Source: Escherichia coli (GTDB lineage Bacteria > Pseudomonadota > Gammaproteobacteria > Enterobacterales > Enterobacteriaceae). From it: a stretch of DNA of 64,000 bases. The position numbers and the translations under genes are program-made. The stretch lies in NCBI GenBank assembly GCA_025336685.1, contig GCA_025336685.1_4717.1; one strand, written 5' to 3'. The notes under the pieces were generated by a model. That model made no database searches. It saw only the letters and a program-made list of their open reading frames with translations, and had not been told where the DNA came from. Below are positions 31,127 to 48,363 of this stretch, piece by piece (position 1 is the first letter of the stretch; every line of letters starts with the position of its first letter).

Positions 31127-31543
31127 TTATCTTCCTCGATTTTCTAGTTGAGACACAATACCATCAGCAACGTAATGCAACTGGACATTAAAATCCAACG
31201 ACGATACTGCGGAAATTGACCAGCAGGCATTTGAAGCCCAATACAACCCACCTACACCCAAAGAGACTTCCCACGTTAACTTCGTTATGACGTCTCTAGC
31301 TCGCTGTTCACTATATCGAAACGCGTTTTCCAACAATGTTTTTCCCGTTTGTGAACATAAAAAGCAAAGTTTCACATCTGTGCCGGTCTTTTCAAAATCA
31401 AACAATCGAAAATGGTCAACCAAAGAGGGGGTGGAGGCTAGGCATTGCAATGCGTCTTCCAATGCAAGATGGTCTAGCGTTTCTAAGTTTTTGCATGGCT
31501 GCTTTGGTGCGAGTGCGATTGATTTGTGGAATACAACATTCAT
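31127..31543 (-). CDS. Small protein, paralogue family A (3 of 3)
   Basis: LCFLCSQTGKTLLENAFRY ... TWEVS. Confidence 0.5.
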   Translation of the reverse strand: MNVVFHKSIALAPKQPCKNLETLDHLALEDALQCLASTPSLVDHFRLFDFEKTGTDVKLCFLCSQTGKTLLENAFRYSEQRARDVITKLTWEVSLGVGGLYWASNACWSISAVSSLDFNVQLHYVADGIVSQLENRGR

Positions 31544-31591
31544 GATTAGTTCCTCGTAGTGTTAAGTGGGGACAGATGTGTCCCCGGATAG

Positions 31592-32062
31592 TTAGATTAC
31601 ATCCCAAGCCGTGTTAGGTATGGGTTGATTACGATCGATGTAATACATCACGCTTTCTTTAAGCTTGGTTAACGCGTCAGCAACGATGTTCTCCACGGTT
31701 ATCACCTTTTCCATGTTGCCCATTGTATCCTGCCATGTAAACCAATCATTGATGTTATCGATGTATAGGGACTCATCGTCATCCGTCATGACCTGTATAT
31801 TTTCACGGCGATCGCGGGTTGTATACAACGGTGTTTGTACATTCGTTCTAACACGCGTCCAAAGCTTCTCTAGAAAGTTCGACGGTTGATTATTCGTAGC
31901 GATAATAAGCTCACTACGTACTGAATGTTCTCCTCGCTTTTCAATAGCAAATAAACCATCGTAAGTGATGTTCATCAATTTACGGAGGTCATCGTTGCTG
32001 TTCCAGTCTTTTACAACAGCAGGAAGTCGGCTATTGTAACCTTCAGGCAATCTCTCAATCAT
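31592..32062 (-). CDS. Hypothetical protein (156 aa)
   Basis: ORF in the same co-directional block. Confidence 0.45.
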   Translation of the reverse strand: MIERLPEGYNSRLPAVVKDWNSNDDLRKLMNITYDGLFAIEKRGEHSVRSELIIATNNQPSNFLEKLWTRVRTNVQTPLYTTRDRRENIQVMTDDDESLYIDNINDWFTWQDTMGNMEKVITVENIVADALTKLKESVMYYIDRNQPIPNTAWDVI

Positions 32063-32492
32063 CGGTTTCTGCTCCTATATCACGTTTGAGGTCGGCCATC
32101 AGTTTTTCATAATGGTCTTTTATCACGTTCGCAATAACGAATTGCACTTTTCTCACTAGCTGCTCATCGGCATCACTGAATGTAAAAAGCTCACACACAT
32201 CAATCGGTTGTGATGCACCACCAATACGGTAGGTTTTAGTCGATGCGCGCTCAGCAATGACGGGGAGCGGTTCCACAGCGTTCAGTGCGGTACAGATTTC
32301 CGTAACGAGTTCTTGAATGCTGCTTCTGCCTTCGATAATAACAGAACAGCGATAGACATCCACCTCGTTAAGCCGTTCAACGACATCCGCCCTGATTTTG
32401 AAATTTCCAATAAGCGAGCTCACCAAAGTGCTATGCCAGTTGTTCACCACCCCGACCAACAGCGGATGATTCTCAAGATCTCTTCTATTCAT
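32055..32492 (-). CDS. Hypothetical protein (145 aa)
   Basis: ORF overlapping the downstream start by 8 nt (coupled). Confidence 0.45.
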   Translation of the reverse strand: MNRRDLENHPLLVGVVNNWHSTLVSSLIGNFKIRADVVERLNEVDVYRCSVIIEGRSSIQELVTEICTALNAVEPLPVIAERASTKTYRIGGASQPIDVCELFTFSDADEQLVRKVQFVIANVIKDHYEKLMADLKRDIGAETDD

Positions 32493-32571
32493 CAGTTAGC
32501 TCCTAAATAGCGCTACAACTAATTTTTAATGGAAGGGAATATGTTTCCCTTCCTTGGGTTAGTTTAATGCG

Positions 32572-32847
32572 TCATGCAGCTTTACAGCTCGCGTAACATA
32601 CCAGTGTTCCGTTGTTGATTGCCTCAACAACATCCTGGGTCAGTTTGGTCGCAAGTTTATTATCCGCACTCGGTACGTAATAACCTTCTCCTGTTTCAGT
32701 GACTAGGCGATAACGTACTAATCCTACCGCACGCTCGACGCGTAGCACCTTTTCAAGTTTGTGTTTGATGATCTTCGTCAGGCTGACGGCGTCTGATGCG
32801 TAGATTGCTTTATAAACCTTGTTCTTTGCTGTCGGTTTCATCAACAT
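32572..32847 (-). CDS. Small hypothetical protein (start moved to the internal ATG to avoid overlap with 32870..33703)
   Basis: The track ORF 32572..32910 would overlap the upstream gene by 40 nt; the internal start gives MLMKPTAKNK... Confidence 0.4.
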   Translation of the reverse strand: MLMKPTAKNKVYKAIYASDAVSLTKIIKHKLEKVLRVERAVGLVRYRLVTETGEGYYVPSADNKLATKLTQDVVEAINNGTLVCYASCKAA

Positions 32848-32869
32848 GGTTTCTGTTTTCCTTGGTTTA

Positions 32870-33703
32870 TCACGATGCCAGGTCAGCGATATCCCAATGG
32901 GTATAACCAACCTCGCGGATGAGCTCTGCTGTCTCTTCGAACAGTGGGGTAGGGCTAATAACCGGTAACCATTTCCCCTCTCGGGTTATCTTGACTTCGA
33001 CGGTCTGTAAGTTCGTGTTCCAACGAACATCATAAACCAGCGCATAGCCAAGAGGATGAACAAGTCCATCTTGGTTATATGTCTCCAAAAGACCTCGTAC
33101 GTCTTCTTCGTAGGATGTTTTCGACAAGACAGCACGTACTCGTCGCAGCCTCTTCGTGATAACCTTTCCCAGCTCGATGCTCTCCCAGCCTGTCATGACG
33201 CAAGGATTACCATCGCGACGAAGAGACCGAGAAATATAAATAGAATCGTTCGTGGTAAGGTGTACCCACCCAAGATCGCAGTATGCGACAGGTCGTGGTG
33301 ATTCTCCTTCGATAACCGTCGTTTCATCCAACATCGCCACAACACCGCAGTCTGCGAACTCCGGCGATACTTCATCCAGCATCTTAATACGGCTTTCTTG
33401 GCCGGTATGGTCAGGATCGACATGCGCGTAGTAGTAATTAGGCTCTATCGCACGGTATTGCGCAATGCTTCTACGGAAGTCGGTATCCTGCATTCCCAGC
33501 GGGTGGTGATACGCAAGCTGTTGCTTTATACCATCCTTGATTACCAACAGAAGATCTTCGCGATCTGATGCGGGATCCTCCACCACGATGTATTTAACAA
33601 TCGCTTTCAGGTTCTTAACGATGCTATCTGGAAGTTTCTCAATATCCCGCGCATCATAGACACGGTTAACTACAGTGTTTACAAGGTGTTTTGATAAGCT
33701 CAT
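32870..33703 (-). CDS. Paralogue family B protein (1 of 3), function unknown
   Basis: Shares an HPLG(F/Y)-containing C-terminal domain and a (Y/W)(H/Y)PLGMQD N-terminal motif with 33781..34638. Confidence 0.55.
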   Translation of the reverse strand: MSLSKHLVNTVVNRVYDARDIEKLPDSIVKNLKAIVKYIVVEDPASDREDLLLVIKDGIKQQLAYHHPLGMQDTDFRRSIAQYRAIEPNYYYAHVDPDHTGQESRIKMLDEVSPEFADCGVVAMLDETTVIEGESPRPVAYCDLGWVHLTTNDSIYISRSLRRDGNPCVMTGWESIELGKVITKRLRRVRAVLSKTSYEEDVRGLLETYNQDGLVHPLGYALVYDVRWNTNLQTVEVKITREGKWLPVISPTPLFEETAELIREVGYTHWDIADLAS

Positions 33704-33780
33704 CGATGATCTCTCTTTGTTATTTCTACCGATAACGCGGCATAAGGGGACAATGATGTCCCCGTGTTAGAATCAACTAC

Positions 33781-34638
33781 TTACGGCTTCAAATCCGAAA
33801 TATCCCATCGTACGTAACCTGTACGCTCAATTTCATGAACCAGTTCCTCGGTTTGTTTCTCAACACCGACAACGGGAACCCAATTCAACTGTTGGGTGCG
33901 TTTACCGATGTTAACCTCGACACGCTGCAGATCATCATTCCAACAAACCCCAGCCGGTTTCACAAAACCCAGCGGGTGGATAAAACTAAGATCGTCGCTG
34001 AAATCACGAAGAACGCGCAACGTATCGATGGTTGAAGGGTTATCACAGCGAACAAGGCGTACGCTTTGCAATTTATCGTATACCGCTCGAGCTACACGTT
34101 CATCGCGCCAGTTCGTCATGAATACCGGTTTTATACCACGTTTTAGAAGATGATCGATCTGGATTGCGATGTTATCGTGAACATACATGCAACCCTGTTC
34201 GGTTTCGGTGTTGCAGCCACCGTCCTCTAACCGGTTCGGATACGTCTGATGGTCTACCGTCACAGCAACTCCTTCAGCGAGCGTGGTCAACGGAAGAAGA
34301 CGTTGTAGACTCGTTATTGGATAATCAGGCGACATCCCAGGACGGATATGCGCCATCGTACCCCAACTGTCAGGGAATCCGTGTCGGTATGTGTATTGCC
34401 TGAATACCTCATCCTGCATCCCTAACGGATACCATCGTGCAAGCCGCTGTTGCTCGCCATCCTGAATAACAAAAAGCATTTCTTTGCGATTCGGCCATCG
34501 ATGATGTTCCACGGTCAAGCCATCAACAACCGGTCTTAAGTTGACTTTGATATGCTCGGGAAGTTTATCCACCTCTTCGCGACGGTAAAATCGATCGACG
34601 ACGATGATATCAACCTTCCCGTGATTGAACCAATTCAT
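33781..34638 (-). CDS. Paralogue family B protein (2 of 3), function unknown (start moved to ATG 34638, MNWFNHG)
   Basis: WYPLGMQDEVF and IHPLGFVKPAGVCWNDDLQRVEVNI align with the other two family members. Confidence 0.55.
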   Translation of the reverse strand: MNWFNHGKVDIIVVDRFYRREEVDKLPEHIKVNLRPVVDGLTVEHHRWPNRKEMLFVIQDGEQQRLARWYPLGMQDEVFRQYTYRHGFPDSWGTMAHIRPGMSPDYPITSLQRLLPLTTLAEGVAVTVDHQTYPNRLEDGGCNTETEQGCMYVHDNIAIQIDHLLKRGIKPVFMTNWRDERVARAVYDKLQSVRLVRCDNPSTIDTLRVLRDFSDDLSFIHPLGFVKPAGVCWNDDLQRVEVNIGKRTQQLNWVPVVGVEKQTEELVHEIERTGYVRWDISDLKP

Positions 34639-34926
34639 GTTAACTCCCTCTGTGGTGCGAAAACAAAACATCTAATTGCTCCCGTTGTTCTTTTAAGTAT
34701 GCGGGAAGCTGGTCTTCCCGTACCGTTCCGATTTCCAACGTGATATACCAGCGTTGTTCGGAAGCCTGCCATTGAAAACTGCTCTGTAACCGCAGGATGC
34801 TAGGATCGTGTACCTTGCTTGCACTGTAACGGTTGAACCAATTCAGGTATCCTGCTTTCCCTTCCTCATCAGCAACGTAACGCTGCACGCTGTTCTTCCC
34901 TTTGTTTTCGTATCCTGTTGCGTGTA

Positions 34927-38335: not shown

Positions 38336-38971
38336 TTATTCAACACTGAAACCGTTCAAACAGATGGCTTCGTAACGTTTACGTTCACGGCGTTTGCGTG
38401 CCTGCCAACCGTAAATGAACTTCTCGTCTTTCTCACGACGTTCCGCTAATTCGATGTAATAGGTGCTCTGCATGTCCAGCATTGCATCGATGAGATAATC
38501 CTTACCGGTTGCGCCACGCTTAGCGATGTAGGCATCAAGAGCCGCCAGTGTTTTGGGACCCATTGCGCCATCAGCGTCGATATTTTTCCAGTAAGTTTGG
38601 CGGTTGTTCATGACGTTCAGATAACGCTGAAGGTTCTTAACCGGTACGGTTTTGCCTGCGTTGATACCCAGGTCAAAGAGACGATCAGCCAAGAACACGG
38701 AACGTTTCATGACCTCATCAAGCTTCATCTTATCCCAGAAGTGGGTCTTGTAGATGAAGAACGCCATTTCCGTGGTAAGGTTACGCATATTACCGTCCCA
38801 CCCGAATTTCGTTTTCAGCGTGGTTTTGTACTGATCCGCAAGCGCTTTCGTAATGCCGTGGTTCGTGATCCCACCAGAGTCATCGGGATCGTCGACGTAA
38901 CCTGCTTCGATGCTAGTTTTATCACGAATGATAAATTCGCAAGTAAAATCTTTTTCAGTAATCTTGGCCAT
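38336..38971 (-). CDS. Endolysin: GH108-family lysozyme with C-terminal peptidoglycan-binding (PG_binding_3-like) domain
   Basis: N-terminal IEAGYVDDPDDSGGITNHGIT matches the GH108 E...GGY.DDP.D.GG.T..GIT signature; C-terminal half resembles PG_binding_3. Confidence 0.7.
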   Translation of the reverse strand: MAKITEKDFTCEFIIRDKTSIEAGYVDDPDDSGGITNHGITKALADQYKTTLKTKFGWDGNMRNLTTEMAFFIYKTHFWDKMKLDEVMKRSVFLADRLFDLGINAGKTVPVKNLQRYLNVMNNRQTYWKNIDADGAMGPKTLAALDAYIAKRGATGKDYLIDAMLDMQSTYYIELAERREKDEKFIYGWQARKRRERKRYEAICLNGFSVE

Positions 38972-39097: not shown

Positions 39098-41146
39098 TCA
39101 AATACCTTTGGTTCCCTTCACGTGATGTGCAATTTCTTCAACCATTGCACGCAACGCACGAAGCTGCTGGTCGTGTTCGTACCAACCGCCCAACAGAACC
39201 CCGCTATACACCATGGTGTCAAGACTTAACAGTCCTTTATCTGATACGTTGATCATTTCCGGGAACTGTTCTTGAACACGCTGTGCGATGACACCGATCT
39301 TCTCTACATCAGGATCGTAGTTGTGACGGAAACGGGCAAGCCCGCTGCGCGCCATTTCACGTAAACGTTCGCTAAGAGATTCTGGATGGTCTTTCAGGTA
39401 ACGGATGTCATGTTTACTACGCTCATCTGAACGGATGTAAGCGTTAGGAACATCGATGTTACTGTTGAAGTACAGTGCGCTACCACCACCTGCAGAGTTA
39501 CCCCAATAGAAGCGTGTGATCTCCCCACCGCCATTTTCCGTGATGATAACATGTTTACCTAAACGCGTGCCACCATTGCCGTCAACGAAGACCAGTTTGT
39601 TTCCGCTGTAAGAACCCCAGAACAAACGTGTGTCGATGATGTGCGTTGCAGCGAGACGAGCGTTACGCGGTGTAGAATACACGGTGTTAACATCTTGCTG
39701 CGCTTGCGCATCGGAAGCGATACCGTAGTTCTGTACGTTCCCTAAACCTACCTGCGCTTTCGTAACAGCATGTGGGTTATCTCGACGGTTAGCGTGAGCG
39801 TTAACCAGATCGCCCGCCAGTTTTTGAATAGCCCAGTTGGTAGACTGTGGTGTCATGTAACGGTTCGTTGCAGAACCACCTTGCGCCTCAGCTTGGTTAG
39901 CGGTTGGGTAGTTCTCAACGCTTCCTAACCCCACTTGTGCTTTAGACACTTGGTGTGGGTTGTTCTTGTCAGCGATGTGTGCATTAAGCGGAACTAACGC
40001 AAAGGTCTCAATGGACGCTTTGGTTGTGTTCGGTGCCATTAATCGGTTAGCTGCAACACCGGCACGCGCTTCATCCTCAGACGCCATTGGGTAGTCTTGT
40101 ACATTCCCTAACCCAACCTGCGCTTTGGTTACCCTGTGTGGGTTGTTGTAATCGGCTTTATGTGCGTTAAGCGGAATCAATGCGAACTGTTCAATCGCTG
40201 CAACGGTACGCAACGGCGTCATGAAACGGTTGTTCGCGGTTCCGCCCTTCGCCTCGCTATCCGAAGCGGTAGGGAAGTTATCAACGTTCCCAAGGTTAAC
40301 CTGCGCTTTGGTGACGCTATGCGGGTTATCTTTACGGTTAGCGTGAGCATCGACTAGGTCACCAGCCAGTTTAGCGATTGCCCATCCAACCGTTTGTGCG
40401 GTCATGTACCGATCAGGTGCGGTACCGGCTTCTGACTCCGCCTTGTTTGCGGTAGGGTAGTTCTGTACGTTACCTAGTCCAACTTGGGCTTTGGTGGTTT
40501 CGTGTGGGTTATCGGTACGGTTAGCATGCGCGTAATGCAGATCGGTAAGATTTTTATCCGCTGCTTGCATGTCTTTGCGTAACTGATCGATTGCTGCCCA
40601 GAGACGGTTATCGGACGCAGCGTCGCCGATAAGTATCGCGGCTTTCAGTGAATAGATCGCTAAGCAAAGATGTTCGGTACCGTAGATAGCACTAACGTGG
40701 TGGATGTGTGGTTCAGGCGGATAAAGTTCCGGTTTGTTCTTGATGTCGTCCCAGTTGATCGGACGATCGTCAAGTTTGAGTTCTTCGATAGCCTGATATA
40801 ACGCGTCAATAAGACTTACGTAAACACCACCGATGATACGATAGTCGTTAACTAACGTACCCTCGATGTCATCGTTGATGATGGCGATAGCCGCACAGAT
40901 TTCTTTACCGGCGTAAAGCGTAGCGTCCTGATACAAGAAGATGGGTTTGTAGTCCACGCCTCGCACCAGTGTCTTACCGGTAAGCTTTTCAGTGATGACC
41001 AGACTTTCGGTGAAGAACGGTCCGCCGTCGAGGGCGTAACATTTATTCTCGGTTCGTGGAACGGTGTGCTCTTCACCAACGATGTGGTTGCTATCGAGCG
41101 TGCCGGTCCAGTCCTCGGGGTACTTCAGGGTAATTGGTGTTGACAT
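39098..41146 (-). CDS. Tail fibre protein with 5 NPHxVTKAQVGLGNVxN repeats and a C-terminal S74-type intramolecular chaperone domain
   Basis: Five roughly 57-aa repeats (H-A-N-R-x-D-N-P-H-x-V-T-K-A-Q-V-G-L-G-N-V); C-terminal SDERSK at about nt 39411-39428 matches the SDxRxK autoproteolysis motif. Confidence 0.8.
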   Translation of the reverse strand: MSTPITLKYPEDWTGTLDSNHIVGEEHTVPRTENKCYALDGGPFFTESLVITEKLTGKTLVRGVDYKPIFLYQDATLYAGKEICAAIAIINDDIEGTLVNDYRIIGGVYVSLIDALYQAIEELKLDDRPINWDDIKNKPELYPPEPHIHHVSAIYGTEHLCLAIYSLKAAILIGDAASDNRLWAAIDQLRKDMQAADKNLTDLHYAHANRTDNPHETTKAQVGLGNVQNYPTANKAESEAGTAPDRYMTAQTVGWAIAKLAGDLVDAHANRKDNPHSVTKAQVNLGNVDNFPTASDSEAKGGTANNRFMTPLRTVAAIEQFALIPLNAHKADYNNPHRVTKAQVGLGNVQDYPMASEDEARAGVAANRLMAPNTTKASIETFALVPLNAHIADKNNPHQVSKAQVGLGSVENYPTANQAEAQGGSATNRYMTPQSTNWAIQKLAGDLVNAHANRRDNPHAVTKAQVGLGNVQNYGIASDAQAQQDVNTVYSTPRNARLAATHIIDTRLFWGSYSGNKLVFVDGNGGTRLGKHVIITENGGGEITRFYWGNSAGGGSALYFNSNIDVPNAYIRSDERSKHDIRYLKDHPESLSERLREMARSGLARFRHNYDPDVEKIGVIAQRVQEQFPEMINVSDKGLLSLDTMVYSGVLLGGWYEHDQQLRALRAMVEEIAHHVKGTKGI
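39646..40534 (-). repeat. Tandem in-frame coding repeats (5 units of about 170 bp) within the tail fibre gene
   Basis: Repeated protein motif NPHxVTKAQVGLGNVQNY(P/G)xA and recurring DNA words such as CAGGTTGGGTTAGGGAACGT variants. Confidence 0.6.
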
Positions 41147-41159
41147 AACCTGGAGGTCC

Positions 41160-43754
41160 TTATAACGTGACTGTACCTAATTTGGTTGTCTTATTGAGAT
41201 TGATGACAGAGATCTGGGTATCGCTGGTCGTAATCGTTCCGATGTTAACGCGCTGCCCTTTATCATCTTCTTGCTTGTGGATGGTTAACTCCAATTCTAA
41301 CTGGTTACCGTTAGGAACAACGGAAACGTACCACGTTTTATTACCTGGCGAACTATTATAGTCTTTTAGGTTATAATGGCCTTTAGGTAAAGTCATGGCC
41401 TTACCAGCAAACAAGCAAGCGATGTCTTCGTTGATGTAGATATCGTAACCGGAAGCAGCAACGACCGTAGAAACCATGTAGACATGTTTGACGGTACCTG
41501 CGAGGTATTCGGCTACGCTTGGCCCATATGCTCTGAATACCTGTCCGCCATTGGATAAACGGTACGCTTCCCCAAGGTCGACGTACCCCAGACCCCATAC
41601 CGGATGGACGTTGTAACGACGTCCGCTGCTGGCCAAATACTCATAAAGGTCATCTACCGATAACCCAACCCACGCACCACTGGCGTTCTTAGCACCACGG
41701 AATTGAAAATCGTTTGCGTTTCCTGGAGTAGCAACGCGCACGGACATCGCCCCGGCGATTAACCAACCATCAGCGCATTTACGATACCCTAATGGTCCCC
41801 ACGCCCCCAGAGTGTTGTCAATGTTATTGATTTGGTCCCGAAGCGTGTAAGTTACCGTTGTGATGACCCCCGTTACGGTAATGTTCCCTTCCCGAGCGCT
41901 GGTCGTCACTTCAGACGTCATGATAGCCGCCTTCCTGGAGACAGGATCGTACACCGATATGAACATCAAGCAGGGGGCCCCTGTGGACGCTGGAGGAACC
42001 ACGATAGAGCCGCGTATAACGGAGTATCTCTCAAGCTTCGGCGACGTGTAGGTATCCCAACAAAGTTTGGCCGCTCTGTCGAGTTCTGCCTGCGTGATGC
42101 TTATCGATGCCCCCTTTAAGGCTAACGTATCAGGGTCGACCTCAACCCTGCTGCTTAATCTCCCTTCCTGTAGCCAGCTGCCAGTCACTATCGTCTGGTC
42201 GTCGCTCATGTGAATTGTCGCGAAACGTTCGCTCACTGAACCGCCTACGTGGACGCGACTGGTTGGCGGGAATCCCATCACATCGACCACGCTGTTCTTA
42301 TAGCGATAACTCAAATCCCAATCAGCGGTTATTAACCGCTTTTCGAAATTGCTCTGACCCCCTGGGATGCGGGATAAGACATAGACCTTGTTCTTCGCCG
42401 TGAAGCCAACGAAGCCGTGTGGACCACAGGACCCAACAACGCGGTCCTTGATGTTAATCCAGTTCCCCGCCTCGTACGCGGATATTGGGGTGAGTTTTGC
42501 AAGTTCGTCGAAGACATTACCAGCGTAGTCACCAATGCGATACGATCGAACCATCGGCGAGGCCAGGTTATCATTCACACAGCTGGTAACCAGACCGTCC
42601 TCGCGAATGACCATGTTCCCGGTAAGGTTGGCCCCACCCCATACCCAGAATCCGTCTTTATAATCACGGTCACGAGTTGACATCGTACAAGGGCCACGAA
42701 AGGACACCGAACCATCGGAGTTCACTTGTAATGACGGTGTTCCAGCATTGGGACTTAATGTCCATTGCTTCGTATCCAGGTTCAAATCGACGTACCAGAT
42801 CGTTGTCCCCTGATCGGCGATATTCACGGTACTGTTAGTGTACCATGCCGTCGTGCAGTAGATTCGCGCAATGTTACCTTTTACAACAGCGTAATTTCTA
42901 ACACCCGCACGAATAGGGACAAGCGTCGTTAATTGACTAGGGTACGCTGTATGGTTTAACACTTCCCAGAAAAGAATATGGTCGAGGTTGGTTTTCGTCG
43001 TTCCCTCAAAAATCTTTCCACTAAACCCGGTTTCTTTGGTGAACTGTACGGCCGCACCATTTTTAATGTCCGATAACATACAGGTATGTACATCGAGCCC
43101 GTTTTTCCCTTCATACGCCCACCAGACTAACAGGTACACTTTGTTTTTGTAGACGAACGTACTACAGCGCGCCATGCTGTCGGTAATACCCTCTACCGAC
43201 CCGGTACACATGGCGGCGACATGCTTCTCTACGTTGAATGTGCCGTTAGTCAGAACGATGTAGGGCTGTGTGTTCTCGTCGTTTGCGTCCATCGCGACAC
43301 CCATCATCACGCCGTGGTTATGACACCAGACTGATTGTGGGATTTTAGGTAGTGCTGTAGGGTTGTACTGGCGACTGGTACCTATGGCGGTATCGAGCAG
43401 CCCTTCACCATTGTTTTTACAGATAGCGTAATACACCCCGTTTTTCATGCTGTTGGATGCAGAGCGAAGGATGGAAACACTCCCGTCTGCTTCCTGACAG
43501 ATTCCGTAGGTACGACGTTCGGTCATGGCTATCGCGCCATCAGCTGACCCTTCGATGGCGAGAGGGAAGTAACTTTGATCGCCAATTTGTTCGATATCGG
43601 TTACGTCAATATCAATGTACTTTTCCATCTCGGTGTTGAACTCTGCGGTGCTGTACGCGCCGAGATCGCCAGCCTTTAACCCTGTTGGATTGCTTCGACT
43701 AGCGATACGTTCGGTAACGCTGGTCACCAGTTCGCTAAATTTTTTCATTGCCAT
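41160..43754 (-). CDS. Large tail-associated protein (864 aa), possible tail spike or baseplate component
   Basis: Location between the tail fibre genes; no catalytic motif recognised. Confidence 0.5.
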   Translation of the reverse strand: MAMKKFSELVTSVTERIASRSNPTGLKAGDLGAYSTAEFNTEMEKYIDIDVTDIEQIGDQSYFPLAIEGSADGAIAMTERRTYGICQEADGSVSILRSASNSMKNGVYYAICKNNGEGLLDTAIGTSRQYNPTALPKIPQSVWCHNHGVMMGVAMDANDENTQPYIVLTNGTFNVEKHVAAMCTGSVEGITDSMARCSTFVYKNKVYLLVWWAYEGKNGLDVHTCMLSDIKNGAAVQFTKETGFSGKIFEGTTKTNLDHILFWEVLNHTAYPSQLTTLVPIRAGVRNYAVVKGNIARIYCTTAWYTNSTVNIADQGTTIWYVDLNLDTKQWTLSPNAGTPSLQVNSDGSVSFRGPCTMSTRDRDYKDGFWVWGGANLTGNMVIREDGLVTSCVNDNLASPMVRSYRIGDYAGNVFDELAKLTPISAYEAGNWINIKDRVVGSCGPHGFVGFTAKNKVYVLSRIPGGQSNFEKRLITADWDLSYRYKNSVVDVMGFPPTSRVHVGGSVSERFATIHMSDDQTIVTGSWLQEGRLSSRVEVDPDTLALKGASISITQAELDRAAKLCWDTYTSPKLERYSVIRGSIVVPPASTGAPCLMFISVYDPVSRKAAIMTSEVTTSAREGNITVTGVITTVTYTLRDQINNIDNTLGAWGPLGYRKCADGWLIAGAMSVRVATPGNANDFQFRGAKNASGAWVGLSVDDLYEYLASSGRRYNVHPVWGLGYVDLGEAYRLSNGGQVFRAYGPSVAEYLAGTVKHVYMVSTVVAASGYDIYINEDIACLFAGKAMTLPKGHYNLKDYNSSPGNKTWYVSVVPNGNQLELELTIHKQEDDKGQRVNIGTITTSDTQISVINLNKTTKLGTVTL

Positions 43755-43766
43755 TATTCACCTCAG

Positions 43767-44252
43767 TTAAATCGGCGAATCAGGTAATTGGCCATCGACA
43801 ATCTCGATAGTGGCCACTTTACATGTCGCAGCGAGATGTGCTGTGCCCTGAACTTTGTTCCAGGTACCGATACGCATCACGTTTTTATAGCTGCTGTTAC
43901 TGTCGCTCAATGTGTAAACAAAACCGTTATCCGTGACAGCAAGATAGATCCAACCGGTTGATGCGCTAACACCAGAAACATCCAACGTGGTCGCGGGAAC
44001 CGTTCCTGTTATCGTGTTGTATTCCGCTTCACCTTGGCCGATGCTGATCCTCCCGTTGTTGTAGCTGGCTGCTGGAATTATTTTATTTCGGCTGAAGAAA
44101 AGGAACGGAAGATAACGTTGTGTAACAAGAGGCGTAAGTTTAGGAGCCACTTCTGTCTTAGCGTACACGTTTGTCTGCGTCGTTGTTACTGAATGAGGAT
44201 TCTTCTTGGCCAGGTAGGCTCCCCATTCAGAAAGCAATGTCGATAACTTCAT
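43767..44252 (-). CDS. Short fibre-like protein with one degenerate fibre repeat (KKNPHSVTTTQ)
   Basis: N-terminal degenerate copy of the NPHxVT repeat; lies within the tail fibre cluster. Confidence 0.5.
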   Translation of the reverse strand: MKLSTLLSEWGAYLAKKNPHSVTTTQTNVYAKTEVAPKLTPLVTQRYLPFLFFSRNKIIPAASYNNGRISIGQGEAEYNTITGTVPATTLDVSGVSASTGWIYLAVTDNGFVYTLSDSNSSYKNVMRIGTWNKVQGTAHLAATCKVATIEIVDGQLPDSPI

Positions 44253-44256
44253 ACGG

Positions 44257-44772
44257 CTACCCCATGTAACGTTTTTGGCCGAGGATAAAGACCTTGTTAA
44301 GGACCACCGAGGTAATGCCTGACGCGTCGCAACTCACCTGCCCAACACGAATCGCTGTTGATGAATCAGCCCCAGCACTACTGTTCCAACTCCACCCGAC
44401 CGACCCACCTTTCTGATGAATAAACAGATAGCCGGTTTTGTTCGCCCAGTCGGAAGTAAGACTTTTGATGTCTAACGTTCCTTTCGCCAGAATATAGTCG
44501 GTACCGGCGATCATGACGGGTATTTCAGGATACGAGATTACCGTACCGCTAGCGGTAACGTTGCTGATGCGATCATTACGGATATCAGTGCAATCACCGA
44601 AATACGCTACGGGGAGTATCCCCTTAGGTAGCTTTTTGTCGATTTTCGTATCGACCGTGCTTTTATCGGGCGCGTCGATTTGCGCTGCAGTGACTTGGTT
44701 AGGGTTATCCTTCCTTGCGTACCATGTCGTCATGCGAGCACCCAATTCACTCATTTTTGTGCCCATTTTCAC
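44257..44772 (-). CDS. Short fibre-like protein with one degenerate fibre repeat (RKDNPNQVTAAQ)
   Basis: N-terminal degenerate repeat; lies immediately downstream of the long fibre gene. Confidence 0.5.
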   Translation of the reverse strand: MKMGTKMSELGARMTTWYARKDNPNQVTAAQIDAPDKSTVDTKIDKKLPKGILPVAYFGDCTDIRNDRISNVTASGTVISYPEIPVMIAGTDYILAKGTLDIKSLTSDWANKTGYLFIHQKGGSVGWSWNSSAGADSSTAIRVGQVSCDASGITSVVLNKVFILGQKRYMG

Positions 44773-44824: not shown

Positions 44825-46978
44825 TTATAACGTTTCGAAGTCTTTTGCCTTGATGACTGCGTTGAAGTTGGCAAGGAATTCCTTAAGTAATGCTTGGAAA
44901 ACATCGCGGAACGCCGCGTTCGTCTTCAAGCTGGTTAAATAATCGTTCTTAAGGTAATCGCTAAGCTTACCGATCTTCTGCATCGTCACGCCTTCATCGT
45001 TCTCTCCGGGTTCTTGGCTATTGATATTAGCCCACTTGATCCCTTCGAGATCACCATCAGCAAGGAAGTTAGCTGGCGTCTCATCATCGTTCAGGATTTT
45101 GATCGTATCGCTGGATTCAATACCGCCGTAAGCTTCCAGAAGCTGGTTGACGGTCAACTTATTGACGTTGATTGAACCATTAGCACCATCGATACCGAGT
45201 CCGGTACCCGTGATAGACGTTACTGAAAGATCGATTGGTCCGGTTAACTTACCCCCATTGATAGGGAGCGCGCCAACCTGTTCGGCTGTGTGTGTATGAT
45301 CGGCTAACGCGGCGAACGCTGCAATCGACTTGTAAGTCGAGTACGGTGTCATGTACGCTGTCTGGTTAGTCCTGTCGGCAGCTTGCACGTCGGTGGCGAC
45401 AGCAAAGTCCTGTACGTTCCCTAACCCCACTTGTACCTTGGTTACTTCATGCGGGTTACTCTTATCGACAACGTGTGCCGCAAAACCATCACCTGCTAAA
45501 GCGATGATCGCTGCTTTTGTCGCAGCCGGTGTCATATAGCGGTTGGTCGCTACACCGGTTTGTGCTTCCACATCAGAAGCAACAGGGTAGTTCTCAACAC
45601 TCCCCAACCCAACCTGGGTTTTCGTTACCCTGTGTGGGTTCTCGGTATTTGCGATGTGACTACTGAACCCTTGACCAGCCATTTGCTCGATCGCGTAACG
45701 AACAAGTATTGGTGTCATGTACTTGTTGTTAACCTGACCATCGATCGCTTCTTGGGTAGTAGCAACCCCGAAGTTCTGCACGCTTCCCAGCCCAACCTGG
45801 GCTTTGGTAACACCATGTGGGTTATTGGTGTTACCGATATGTTCGGTTACGGTTGGGGTGATTAGCGCTGCGATAGCGGCGGCTGTGGTCGCAGGCGTCA
45901 TGTATTTGTTGTTAGCAACACCCGCACCAGCTTCCCCATTAGACGCTACACCGTAGTTCTGTACGTCCCCCAGCCCTACCTGGGCTTTCGTAACAGCGTG
46001 AGGGTTGTTATTATCCTCGGTATGGGTTGTTAACGTAGCGTTGACATGATCGATGCGTGTACTTAAGCCGTCCGTGATTGCCTTGATTGCTGCTCGTACA
46101 CCCGCTGGAGTCGTGTACAGATTAGTGGCTGTACCGGTAACGGTTGTATTATCATCGGCTACACCATAGTTCTCAACGTCCCCGAGTCCCACCTGGGCTT
46201 TGGTCACCTTGTGTGGGTTGTTGCGGTTACTGATGTGTGCGGCAGCACTATCACCACTAAGGTTAGCGATCATCTTACGTGTCATCGCCAACGTCATGTA
46301 CAGATTTTCACCGACAGTTTCCAGATCGCTCTCGGTCGCTGTTGTGAAGTTCTGTACATTCCCCAACCCAACTTGGGCTTTCGTGACGCCATGGGGATTA
46401 TCACGTCGATTCTCGTGCTGCACTAACGCAGTCATTGCTTTATTGAACCCTTCTTCAAGCGGTCCTTTCAATGACTCGATTGCAGCCACCACATCGTCCC
46501 ACGTCATCGTGTCGGTTTCGACATTATGTTGGTGGTTGATTGGTGGGAATACGGAAGGAACGTCAGCAACCTTTTCCCAGAACGTAACGCGAGGGTCATA
46601 AAGGTTGTTGGCTAAAACGTTAAGAATTTGTTGTTGATCAAGTGTAAACTCACCCCCCAGTGAATAGTAGTTCAGTTGCAACTGTCCACTGAATGCGGTG
46701 TCCAACAGCATGATGGAACCGTATAATTCCAGGCCGGTCAGCGCAGCCATGGCACGGAAGGGGTGAGTGCATAAAAAGTCAACGCCTTCTTCCAGATACG
46801 CGTTTGTTTCAGGGTTGTAGATCTTTAACCCATTACGAAAATAGGGTGCGTATTTAGGAACGAGAAAGTTAAATCCGGTCCCCGTGGAAGGACGGACAGT
46901 GACGAGTTCTTCTGGAACCCATGCGCCATCCAAATTCCCCTGCGGGTTATACGGAAGGCGTTTAATTTCATCTGTCAT
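44825..46978 (-). CDS. Tail fibre protein with 6 NPHxVTKAQVGLG(N/D/S)V repeats (no S74 domain)
   Basis: Six roughly 55-aa repeats; architecture parallels 39098..41146 but the C-terminus differs. Confidence 0.75.
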   Translation of the reverse strand: MTDEIKRLPYNPQGNLDGAWVPEELVTVRPSTGTGFNFLVPKYAPYFRNGLKIYNPETNAYLEEGVDFLCTHPFRAMAALTGLELYGSIMLLDTAFSGQLQLNYYSLGGEFTLDQQQILNVLANNLYDPRVTFWEKVADVPSVFPPINHQHNVETDTMTWDDVVAAIESLKGPLEEGFNKAMTALVQHENRRDNPHGVTKAQVGLGNVQNFTTATESDLETVGENLYMTLAMTRKMIANLSGDSAAAHISNRNNPHKVTKAQVGLGDVENYGVADDNTTVTGTATNLYTTPAGVRAAIKAITDGLSTRIDHVNATLTTHTEDNNNPHAVTKAQVGLGDVQNYGVASNGEAGAGVANNKYMTPATTAAAIAALITPTVTEHIGNTNNPHGVTKAQVGLGSVQNFGVATTQEAIDGQVNNKYMTPILVRYAIEQMAGQGFSSHIANTENPHRVTKTQVGLGSVENYPVASDVEAQTGVATNRYMTPAATKAAIIALAGDGFAAHVVDKSNPHEVTKVQVGLGNVQDFAVATDVQAADRTNQTAYMTPYSTYKSIAAFAALADHTHTAEQVGALPINGGKLTGPIDLSVTSITGTGLGIDGANGSINVNKLTVNQLLEAYGGIESSDTIKILNDDETPANFLADGDLEGIKWANINSQEPGENDEGVTMQKIGKLSDYLKNDYLTSLKTNAAFRDVFQALLKEFLANFNAVIKAKDFETL
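45390..46426 (-). repeat. Tandem in-frame coding repeats (6 units) within the second tail fibre gene
   Basis: Recurring DNA words (CCCAACCTGGGCTTTGGT / CCCACCTGGGCTTTCGT variants) encoding KAQVGLG. Confidence 0.6.
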
Positions 46979-47082: not shown

Positions 47083-48363
47083 ATGTATACATTGGTAAAA
47101 ACTTACGGATTACCCGTAGGTTCTGGCACGGCCTGGACAGCACTTGAGGCGGGTGAAAGTGTCCTGAGTACGTTGTTCTCAGCGTATCAAAAACTCAAGA
47201 TCCAGGTTCATGAAAGCTATGCTGACCAGCAACAAGTTATTGATCTGTACACATTTCAATCCGAGCTTCAAAACAGCAATGACACGCTCAATGCGTGGTT
47301 GAAAGCGAAATCGGATGCACATACCAACCTTCGAGGACAGCCTGGTGAGCTGTCGATTAAAACCCACAAGCTTTATTGCCATGACGTTATTACCGTAGGC
47401 TTTCTCCCTAAAGTCGGTAATAGTGGTTATCATCCGAGCAATGCGATCCCTGAGTCGGAACGTACCGATATCCTGTTGACGAAAGCGAATACGAATTACG
47501 AAAATATCGGCAAACATTGCTTGTTCACCGTAGGCGGTTATATTCATCCTCATGTTTACGGTAAAGACGTTGGCGTCTATATCCAGGGTGGGTTCGAGAC
47601 AGCACAGCGTAGCCAAGAAAACGATATCGGCATGATTGATTTTAGCCGTATCGGGAGTTTGGAAATCCACGCCATCACAGAAGAGATGATTGCTGATTCC
47701 ACGAAGCTCTTGCCGTATAAGGACGAGATGTACTTACGGCTACCACGTAAGGTCGCCGAAGATGAAACCGTTGCGCTGGTGTTCGGGGGATATCTACACC
47801 TTCTTGACGATTGTTACACGATCGTTAGTGACACGACGGCAAAAATAAACTGCAGAAACATGTTTCTGTATGAAAGATACTTCCGCTCCCGCAAATACCT
47901 TGATTTAACGTCTCTTGGTATTCTGTTGAACGAAGAAGACCCGCAGTCCGATATTGTTGCCAATCGTTTACTGTCTGATAAGACTTTAAAAGCATGGGTG
48001 ACGCATCCCTGCAGTTTCTGGGTGTATATCAAAGCAACATCGATTCAGGTTACACAAGAACCTTTACCACGAAGTGGCGTACCAGGACAATATTTCTTAG
48101 GTAAGAAACCGGAAGGACTGATTCGAGCCGATCTCGGTGAGTTACCGGCCTACGTGCAGACCTATGAAAAACCGTTATGGGTACTTCACTCACGCTGGGG
48201 GCTTCGTAAGAACATGTTGTTTGAAAACACATTGTACAAACATACACGCGTTAAGCGGCTTAACGATACGCCTTATCTTCACCAGGTCTGGTTGAAAACG
48301 CATGCGACGTTGCAGACAGTACATAAGCTCGAATTGATCGATTCCAGTCAGAAAAACAAATAA
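47083..48363 (+). CDS. Hypothetical protein (426 aa), likely tail-associated
   Basis: Divergent from the fibre gene; followed by a family hairpin. Confidence 0.5.
   Translation: MYTLVKTYGLPVGSGTAWTALEAGESVLSTLFSAYQKLKIQVHESYADQQQVIDLYTFQSELQNSNDTLNAWLKAKSDAHTNLRGQPGELSIKTHKLYCHDVITVGFLPKVGNSGYHPSNAIPESERTDILLTKANTNYENIGKHCLFTVGGYIHPHVYGKDVGVYIQGGFETAQRSQENDIGMIDFSRIGSLEIHAITEEMIADSTKLLPYKDEMYLRLPRKVAEDETVALVFGGYLHLLDDCYTIVSDTTAKINCRNMFLYERYFRSRKYLDLTSLGILLNEEDPQSDIVANRLLSDKTLKAWVTHPCSFWVYIKATSIQVTQEPLPRSGVPGQYFLGKKPEGLIRADLGELPAYVQTYEKPLWVLHSRWGLRKNMLFENTLYKHTRVKRLNDTPYLHQVWLKTHATLQTVHKLELIDSSQKNK

Follow-up and report, generated by a model that had tools for sequence, protein, structure and literature searches.

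A Goslar-like phage tail fibre with modular repeats and a predicted self-cleaving C-terminal chaperone

A tail-fibre gene in the 64-kb stretch of DNA analysed here (the window) raises two questions: whether its product matures by losing a C-terminal chaperone that cuts itself off, and whether its repeat array serves recombinational switching of host range. The window is 93% identical in nucleotide sequence to Escherichia phage Goslar, and on this comparison the phage is a Goslar-like nucleus-forming jumbo phage (a chimallivirus). The fibre gene is the orthologue of Goslar gp025 (YP_009820710.1), with 93.1% nucleotide and 98.4% amino-acid identity; the protein of vB_EcoM_Goslar likewise has 682 aa, every one of the 11 substitutions between the two lies within aa 1-481, and aa 482-682 are identical. 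Gene order from gp024 to gp030 is common to both phages, and we use the Goslar names for the genes of the window (Table 1). The presence of an S74-bearing tail fibre at this position is already known and annotated in public records, and the feature is an ordinary one: pfam13884 stands in the RefSeq note of Goslar gp025, the UniRef name is 'Peptidase S74 domain-containing protein', and WP_260974204.1, which is the exact gp025 sequence of the window, is annotated as a tail-fibre / Peptidase S74 protein. With the orthologue and the exact sequence both annotated, the finding is of little weight as a discovery; that phage fibres can end in an S74 intramolecular chaperone is textbook knowledge. No match to the window was found among E. 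coli complete genomes, and a promoter and terminator scan returned fewer sites than in shuffled sequence.

Table 1. Features of the gp025-gp030 locus, in positions of the window.
Feature	Position	Strand	Basis or remark
gp025 orthologue, whole gene; virion tail-fibre protein, phiKZ gp131 family	39098..41146	-	ATG start, 682 aa
N-terminal gp131-like attachment domain (putative), about aa 1-125	40772..41146	-	AlphaFold2 and alignment with phiKZ N-termini
Long helical neck (predicted) before the first repeat, about aa 157-208	40523..40678	-	AlphaFold2
Five 61-aa (183-nt) NPHxVTKAQVGLGNV repeats, aa 205-509	39620..40534	-	Motif spacing and unit HMM
Short Gly-rich distal tip of the predicted mature fibre, aa 510-572	39431..39619	-	Profile alignment reaching the S16 gp37 tip
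Peptidase_S74 intramolecular chaperone domain, aa 573-682	39101..39430	-	Pfam, motif, fold
Ser573 codon, predicted nucleophile; predicted scissile bond between R572 and S573	39428..39430	-	Invariant residue
Lys578 codon, predicted general base of the Ser-Lys dyad	39413..39415	-	Invariant residue; S+5 spacing
gp026 orthologue, 864 aa, hypervariable, between the fibres	41160..43754	-	52% identical to Goslar
gp027, small virion protein	43767-44252	-	N-terminal module common to gp026; one degenerate NPH core
gp028, small virion protein	44257-44772	-	N-terminal module common to gp026; one degenerate NPH core
Paralogous fibre, Goslar gp029 orthologue, 717 aa	44825..46978	-	Six repeats at 45299-46423; C-terminus without S74
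gp030, phiKZ gp130 homologue	47083..48363	+	BLASTP 1e-26; divergent beside gp029

The first-pass annotation, made from the letters alone, had read gp025 as a tail fibre that carries modular repeats and ends in a self-cleaving intramolecular chaperone, and this core reading is supported by all tests run, which draw on sequence comparison and on predicted structure. PF13884 (profile positions 1-56 of 58) matches aa 573-631 with E = 1.1e-5 and a score of 26.1 bits, only 4 bits over the gathering cut-off of 22. The domain occupies the extreme C-terminus, behind the repeat shaft and the tip, and begins with SDERSK (aa 573-578), an S-D-x-R-x-K motif with Lys at +5. Among 18 S74-bearing homologues that are otherwise 17-25% identical, S573, D574, K578, G618 and A621 are invariant, as is the G..A.Q motif of the domain, and the Arg of the SDxRxK motif is at least 90% conserved. 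This alignment was built from matches to full-length gp025, as the C-terminal 182 aa used alone as the query retrieved just one identical partial protein (a word-index limit). S573 and K578 are equivalent to S911 and K916 of endoNF and to S587 and K592 of MyRF, which correspond to each other and have the same S+5 spacing, with cleavage N-terminal to the Ser (PMC8326128). A profile of these homologues matched S16 gp37 (6f45, 6e-24), the MyRF ICA (7dc3, 1e-9), a phage tail fibre (8jov, 8e-9) and the GA-1 neck appendage (3gud, 4e-8).

The fold prediction agrees with these matches. All AlphaFold2 models of gp025 are monomers, and the S74 part is poor in the full-length model because most of the aligned homologues lack S74; we therefore compared folds with the C-terminal model (aa 483-682), in which pLDDT is 74-97 across the S74 part. 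Its top Foldseek match is 7dc3 (E = 3e-4, probability 1.00), and it has the beta hairpins and the long C-terminal helix that in the S74 fold forms a trimeric coiled coil. The conserved chaperone fold, whose lack had been named beforehand as grounds for rejecting the idea, is thus present in the prediction. Codon differences from Goslar within the domain number 21 synonymous and no non-synonymous, which indicates purifying selection and is consistent with a need for the domain when the fibre upstream of it folds and trimerises. An insertion of about 14 residues relative to homologues (the ERLREMARSGLARF region) follows the first helix.

This short extra segment also sets gp025 apart from the processing-competent proteins K1F endoNF, T5 L-shaped fibre pb1 and GA-1 gp12 (PDB 3GW6, 4UW8 and 3GUD), to which it is 9-18% identical. 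These carry a triple beta-helix or an enzyme domain upstream of S74, where gp025 has a helix-rich NPH shaft, and for gp025 the cleavage is a predicted one. Its best sequence match among solved structures is the C-terminal construct of gp37 of Salmonella phage S16 (T2-type; PDB 6F45), with an alignment that spans both the Gly-rich tip before the motif and the S74 domain (SSDRRIKKDIK); the S16 shaft is unrelated to that of gp025. The tip of mature S16 gp37, the distal subunit of the long tail fibre, bears the gp38 adhesin as a cap (PMC6851490), and the gp025 locus yielded no gp38-like protein. MyRF (myelin regulatory factor; ICA structure PDB 7DC3) is a eukaryotic membrane-bound transcription factor, and only this domain is related.

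The repeat array was likewise borne out. NPH motifs start at aa 213, 274, 335, 396 and 457 of gp025, a spacing of exactly 61 aa (183 nt), and an HMM of 11 units gave five matches in gp025 and six in gp029 (each E <= 1e-27), with no score better than E = 0.01 in the rest of the 64-kb window; the signal in the two genes is far beyond chance. Eleven of the 61 columns are invariant across the 11 units, and AlphaFold2 gives every unit an extended NPH...GLGNV loop followed by a short helix and by one of about 20 residues. A profile of the units matched no solved structure and no Pfam family even at E = 10, and the repeat could not be assigned to a named family. In gp029 the six units are spaced by 60, 71, 61, 61 and 61 aa. 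The neighbouring fibre was thus correctly described as having six repeats and a different C-terminus: neither a Pfam match nor the SDxRxK motif was found in it, and a PDB match to ribosomal protein L18e (E = 0.008) was put down to chance. NCBIfam gave no matches for gp025, gp026 or gp029.

Both fibres belong with the gp131 family of phiKZ. By BLASTP, gp025 matches phiKZ gp135 (2e-30), gp131 (4e-29), gp134 (2e-22) and gp133 (7e-20), and gp029 matches gp131 best (6e-45). The phiKZ proteins gp131, gp133, gp134, gp135 and the single-repeat gp132 share with gp025 a homologous N-terminal domain and NPH repeat(s); they have one or two repeats and other C-termini (a beta-propeller in gp131), and none has S74. 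Unlike phiKZ, the phage of the window has only two full-length paralogues of gp131 type, with five and six repeats. The divergent arrangement of gp030 and gp029 mirrors that of phiKZ gp130 and gp131. In phiKZ, the fibres dock under the baseplate protein gp130 via the N-termini of gp131-family proteins, which form hetero-hexamers at 12 sites (PMC13250141). The N-terminus of gp025 aligns with those of phiKZ gp131, gp133, gp134 and gp135, and its aa 11-110 are modelled with pLDDT above 90. The neck, with predicted helices at 157-173 and 176-208 (pLDDT 70-84), may by analogy correspond to the helix bundle at the bases of phiKZ fibres. The tip has low pLDDT in the monomer model and differs from Goslar by 13 synonymous and no non-synonymous codon changes. 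Foldseek with the full-length model returned no phiKZ fibre chains: the best match was to a baseplate-cup chain of a Klebsiella phage (9f4b, E = 6e-6), with weak matches to T4 gp34 and gp12.

Taken together, we consider gp025 to be one of two paralogous, baseplate-anchored fibres, trimerised by its chaperone and self-cleaved to a 572-residue mature form, with a probability of about 0.8; cleavage, trimeric state and attachment site are the parts of it that we infer. As in phiKZ, the N-terminal domain would be the anchor at the peripheral baseplate, with gp030 probably lying over it and gp029 as a probable partner. The five repeats, each a predicted loop with helices, would make a segmented shaft, and the short Gly-rich segment would form the distal tip. 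Following the model of endosialidase, T5 pb1, GA-1 gp12 and MyRF, three copies of the last 110 residues would come together by way of their C-terminal helices and so nucleate a trimer of the fibre that precedes them. When this trimer has folded correctly, Lys578 would activate Ser573 to cut the bond between R572 and S573, and release of the chaperone would leave the 572-residue fibre in the virion, with an expected mass of about 62 kDa against 74.8 kDa at full length.

Virion proteomics of Goslar bears on the last step. In the LC-MS/MS data set of bioRxiv 10.64898/2026.04.21.720040 (Table S4), 44 peptides that cover 59% of the protein are reported for gp025, its copy number is estimated at 58-136, and gp029 is also present; the peptide-level results below refer to the rows of the alphabetical list from A to ELK. 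At least 12 of the 16 gp025 rows in that range map to aa 169-429 (four rows were not identified), and the chaperone-domain tryptic peptides AMVEEIAHHVK and DHPESLSER are both absent from it, while the true C-terminal peptide of gp029, ATDFETL, is there, in support of the earlier description of the gp029 C-terminus as uncleaved. About half of the expected gp025 peptides of the mature part are missing from the same range, and the probability that neither chaperone-domain peptide would be seen if gp025 were uncleaved is estimated at roughly 0.06-0.25. An uncleaved gp025 would also yield peptides beyond R572 such as HNYDPDVEK, IGVIAQR, VQEQFPEMINVSDK and GLLSLDTMVYSGVLLGGWYEHDQQLR. As trypsin also cuts between R572 and S573, cleavage would leave no diagnostic neo-C-terminal peptide, and gp025 is missing from the gel and peptide-fingerprint table of 2019 for Goslar, which therefore gives no band size. 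Within these rows, the peptide pattern fits cleavage of gp025 and does not prove it.

The domain might alternatively be kept as a non-processing, S74-like structural or receptor-binding knob at the C-terminus of a full-length 75-kDa virion protein. The modest Pfam score and the lineage-specific insertion could be taken this way, and in the rows from A to ELK the absence of the chaperone domain concerns two peptides; however, the Ser, Asp and Lys residues and the G..A.Q motif are invariant, the modelled fold matches that of processing-competent chaperone domains, and no chaperone-domain peptide appears in rows where the C-terminal peptide of gp029 was seen. We regard an uncut knob as very unlikely. 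On the favoured reading of a cleaved fibre, there are practical consequences for Goslar, now a model chimallivirus, in whose cryo-EM map tail-fibre density is unassigned and gp25 and gp29 are named by the authors only as likely components: models of the mature fibre should span residues 1-572 rather than 1-682, copy numbers obtained by dividing by full-length mass would be slightly off, and the C-terminal domain would have to be kept when gp025 is engineered or expressed.

As to the second question, the first-pass annotation had also held that DNA-level identity between repeat units within and between the two genes offers substrates for recombinational host-range switching. The identity does not hold as written: its median is 53% across the 183-nt unit (60-81% across a 78-nt core), exact matches between units, in one gene or across both, reach at most 17 nt, and Tandem Repeats Finder picked up neither array in the DNA. 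Third-codon-position identity in the conserved core is 45%, which implies long independent divergence without recent gene conversion. Given this low DNA identity and a near-invariant gp025, the switching claim is not supported in that form, and we think it unlikely that the repeats shuffle gp025 and gp029 modules and so switch host range. The comparison of repeat numbers among relatives, which had been suggested as a check, gave a divided answer: homologues have between 3 and 13 NPH repeats, but numbers and spacing are the same as in Goslar. S74 is found in about 20 of the best 120 homologues, and the others have different C-termini behind the same repeats; gp025 itself, however, is monomorphic among database copies. 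The idea is kept alive as a possibility by contig JAODFR010000112.1 (L005; 1437 bp, E. coli assembly GCA_025336745.1), a gp025::gp029 chimera in which nt 310 to about 1050 of gp025 are joined to gp029 from nt about 1522 to its end, with the junction inside a repeat-core stretch of about 25-50 nt that resembles both parents, at about nt 700-750 of the contig; a second sample carries the contig as well. This is a single short contig truncated at both ends, and its topology (gp025 N-terminus, gp029 C-terminus, gp029 upstream) requires a duplication rather than a simple deletion; it may be a real recombinant or an assembly artefact.

Host range may instead reside between the two fibres. The most conserved protein of the locus is gp025, which falls into one 90%-identity cluster of 405 sequences, found on contigs of 235-241 kb in assemblies of E. 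coli, Salmonella and Shigella. The gp026 of Goslar, by contrast, is another allele: its ends, including an N-terminal NPH-like stretch, are 82-97% identical to those in the window, and its centre 22-60%; in the protein collection, gp026 proteins form 27 clusters in at least five allele classes. In the Goslar virion table, median copies are 87 for gp025 and 75 for gp029 and about 13-14 for each of gp026, gp027 and gp028 (ranges about 9-20 for gp026 and 9-22 for gp027 and gp028), all of them rough LFQ values. It is possible, and we put it forward tentatively, that gp025 serves chiefly as a conserved scaffold within a multi-protein fibre complex and not as a host-range determinant, with gp025 and gp029 as a hetero-oligomeric base like the hetero-hexamers of phiKZ and with variable receptor binding in gp026 (together with gp027 and gp028), docked by the N-terminal NPH-like module. 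Besides the abundances, conservation and phiKZ precedent, the N-terminal module common to gp026, gp027 and gp028 points that way (BLASTP 4e-6 between gp027 and gp028, 1e-3 between gp026 and gp028). However, gp027 and gp028 match the NPH unit HMM only marginally (E = 0.011 and 0.027), and gp025 could bind a receptor conserved across enterobacteria. A Rosetta-stone test gave gp026 no link to the fibres: in Salmonella phage Munch, the gp026-like protein lacks a gp131-like N-terminus and so lends the scaffold no support of this kind. Such a scaffold is compatible with the chaperone mechanism and competes only with gp025 as a host-range fibre. A fuller version, in which the gp025-gp029 hetero-oligomer, after shedding of S74, takes up low-copy gp026, gp027 and gp028 through the shared NPH-like module and host range changes by exchange of the central gp026 cassette, is rather doubtful. 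On that fuller version, the 61-aa NPH unit, which is widespread and uncharacterised, would double as an inter-protein docking element. This repeat and the hypervariable gp026 between conserved fibres may serve the understanding of host range better than the main finding.

Goslar (Escherichia phage vB_EcoM_Goslar), a chimallivirus, is a nucleus-forming jumbo phage, and the genes of the locus are named here after their Goslar orthologues. The gene under study, gp025, shows 93.1% DNA and 98.4% protein identity to its orthologue and no other protein of the locus is as conserved; its 11 amino-acid differences all fall within residues 1-481, and residues 482-682 are identical. The order gp022-gp031 is common to the window and Goslar. 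In gp025, a unit of 61 residues (the NPH unit, NPHxVTKAQVGLGNV) begins at residues 213, 274, 335, 396 and 457, a spacing of exactly 61 residues, and residues 573-578 read SDERSK. An HMM built from 11 units recovers five copies in gp025 and six in its neighbour gp029, each with E <= 1e-27, with no further match below E 0.01 across the rest of the window. Motif positions and HMM thus bear out the first-pass annotation, which had described five repeats followed by an SDxRxK motif in gp025 and six repeats in the neighbouring fibre.

Features of the fibre locus in the window, with peptides, sequence coverage and estimated copies in Goslar virions (Table S4, bioRxiv 10.64898/2026.04.21.720040)
Feature	Coordinates	Strand	Description	Peptides	Coverage	Copies
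gp024 orthologue	38336-38971	minus	endolysin (GH108 + PG_binding_3)			
gp025 orthologue	39098..41146	minus	ATG start, 682 aa	44	58.9%	58-136
Ser codon of SDERSK	39428-39430		S573 of gp025			
NPH array	39620-40534					
gp026 orthologue	41160-43754	minus	hypervariable, between two conserved fibre genes			8.5-20
gp027	43767-44252	minus				9-22
gp028	44257-44772	minus				9.5-22
gp029 orthologue	44825..46978	minus	717 aa, six NPH units	34	51.3%	50-118
NPH array	45299-46423					

The two fibre proteins are paralogues with 38% identity across the N-terminus and repeats. In the full-length AlphaFold2 model of gp025, residues 11-110 form an N-terminal domain (pLDDT above 90), residues 157-208 form a long helical neck, and each repeat combines an extended NPH...GLGNV loop with two helices, a short one and one of about 20 residues, at a pLDDT that reaches about 90. 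By sequence, the 61-residue repeat could be matched neither to a Pfam family nor to a solved structure; it is nevertheless widespread, with occurrences in 540 phage records and in protein clusters numbering at least 2908. The 120 best homologues have 3-13 copies each, and a Peptidase_S74 domain is present in about 20 of them. The hosts of NPH-repeat proteins include Bacillus and Felixounavirus-type hosts.

The reading of gp025 as a tail fibre with a C-terminal, self-cleaving S74 chaperone is supported by domain, residue, profile and fold evidence. Pfam PF13884 matches residues 573-631 at 26.1 bits (gathering score 22). We aligned the C-terminal 200 residues with 17 domain-bearing homologues only 17-25% identical to gp025; the alignment has no variation at S573, D574, K578, G618 and A621 and at least 90% conservation at R576. 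Its profile finds the distal fibre construct of S16 gp37 (6f45, E 6e-24), the MyRF ICA (7dc3, E 1e-9), a phage tail fibre (8jov, E 8e-9) and the chaperone of the GA-1 neck appendage (3gud, E 4e-8). An AlphaFold2 model of residues 483-682 has pLDDT 74-97 on the S74 part and below 50 on the preceding Gly-rich tip, where low confidence is expected because a trimeric fibre was modelled as a monomer. For this model Foldseek places the MyRF ICA at the top (E 3e-4, probability 1.00) and the endoNF chaperone next; structure prediction therefore recovers the conserved chaperone fold, the absence of which the first-pass annotation had named as counting against the reading. Compared with Goslar, the S74 codons carry 21 synonymous and no non-synonymous differences and the tip codons 13 and none, which indicates that both regions are under strong purifying selection. 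As a feature, gp025 is a standard member of a well-known family and is already annotated: the RefSeq note on the Goslar protein reads 'conserved domain Peptidase_S74 pfam13884', its UniRef name is 'Peptidase S74 domain-containing protein', and NCBI lists a protein identical to that of the window (WP_260974204.1) as 'tail fiber domain-containing protein'.

In MyRF the scissile bond lies directly N-terminal to the catalytic Ser, and S587/K592 are the counterparts of endoNF S911/K916 (PMC8326128). By homology, the predicted scissile bond in gp025 is R572|S573, and a cut there would leave a mature fibre of 572 residues. Trypsin itself cuts this bond, so proteomics offers no diagnostic peptide for the cleavage. 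In LC-MS/MS of purified Goslar virions, reported in a 2026 preprint that could not assign the tail-fibre density of its cryo-EM maps and lists gp25 and gp29 as likely fibre components (bioRxiv 10.64898/2026.04.21.720040), the peptide evidence considered here covers the alphabetical range A to 'ELK...' of the Table S4 peptide sheet. Within that range there are 16 gp025 rows, of which 12 were identified, all at residues 169-429; the S74 tryptic peptides AMVEEIAHHVK and DHPESLSER are absent, missed-cleavage and oxidised forms included. The true C-terminal peptide of gp029, ATDFETL, served as a control and does occur among the Table S4 peptides, at low score. About half of the mature-part gp025 peptides expected in the range are missing too, and the estimated chance of both S74 peptides being missing without cleavage is roughly 0.06-0.25. 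The pattern in this part of the sheet hints at a cleaved gp025 and an uncleaved gp029, and cleavage of gp025 would be consistent with the published proteomics to that extent. The 2019 Goslar gel and fingerprint table has no gp025 among its entries.

The first-pass annotation had also proposed that DNA-level identity between repeat units provides substrates for recombinational host-range switching. That identity is not borne out: units share 60-81% across a 78-nt core and a median of 53% across the 183-nt unit, the longest exact match between them is 17 nt, and TRF detected no array in the repeat DNA. In the conserved core, codon positions 1 and 2 are 86% identical and third positions 45%. The window and Goslar agree in the number of repeats and in their spacing, and in a large protein collection gp025 forms a single 90%-identity cluster of 405 sequences, with members on 235-241-kb contigs from E. 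coli, Salmonella and Shigella assemblies. Recombinational switching is thus weakly supported, conserved gp025 and diverged repeats standing against it and a single chimeric protein, P0034, in its favour. The contig that encodes it, JAODFR010000112.1 (1437 bp; E. coli assembly GCA_025336745.1), is reported from two samples. The first part of P0034 corresponds to gp025 residues 104 to ~358, covering repeats 1 and 2 and running into repeat 3, and its second to gp029 from mid-repeat 6 to the C-terminus. The contig DNA aligns with gp025 over nt 1-745 and with gp029 over nt 694-1437; the switch lies within the QVGLGNVQD core (about nt 700-745), where the sequence is similar to both parents. The contig may be a real inter-paralogue recombinant; with gp029 upstream of gp025, that topology would require a duplication or an unequal crossover. 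An assembly chimera is equally possible.

On this evidence, the lineage's signal of host-range variation lies in gp026 rather than in the gp025 or gp029 repeats. In sequence, gp026 forms 27 clusters and at least five allele classes with conserved ends in the collection in which gp025 is one cluster. Identity of gp026 to Goslar is 52% overall, 82-90% over residues 1-80, 22-60% over 121-720 and 90-97% over 761-864, and no nucleotide alignment to Goslar spans window ~41480-43415. It has no Pfam or PDB match and is a candidate host-range cassette.

Both gp025 and gp029 belong to the phiKZ gp131, gp133, gp134 and gp135 family (gp029 vs gp131, E 6e-45; gp025 vs gp135, E 2e-30); none of the phiKZ members carries an S74 domain. 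A homologue of phiKZ gp130, gp030 (E 1e-26), adjoins the first fibre gene in divergent position, as gp130 does. The fibres of phiKZ dock beneath gp130 at 12 sites, each a hetero-hexamer of N-termini from the gp131 family with a six-helix bundle (PMC13250141). An N-terminal module of about 55-70 residues, common to gp026, gp027 and gp028, contains a degenerate NPH core (KKNPHSVTTTQ, KDNPNQVTAAQ and SNPTGLKAGD across gp027, gp028 and gp026), and phiKZ, too, has a free-standing protein with a single repeat, gp132. Goslar virions contain about 13-14 copies of each of the three, roughly one sixth of the ~75-87 for gp025 and gp029. Shared module, copy numbers and phiKZ architecture together suggest a putative docking of gp026-gp028 onto a conserved gp025/gp029 scaffold.

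By virion MS, the endolysin gp024 is present at about 51-120 copies per Goslar virion, close to the adjacent fibre proteins; with such fibre-like abundance it may be virion-associated, not a late lysis enzyme only. Among complete E. coli RefSeq genomes no match was found; isolate assemblies labelled E. coli, Salmonella enterica and Shigella flexneri contain near-complete Goslar-like genomes with the exact gp025 protein, on contigs of 235-241 kb, which suggests carrier-state infection or phage co-sequenced in surveillance isolates. Elsewhere in the window, ~31138-34677 aligns to Goslar poorly or not at all (one 328-nt piece at 79% identity) and is about 2 kb longer than the matching interval, the result of an indel or a replacement in a set of small hypothetical genes.
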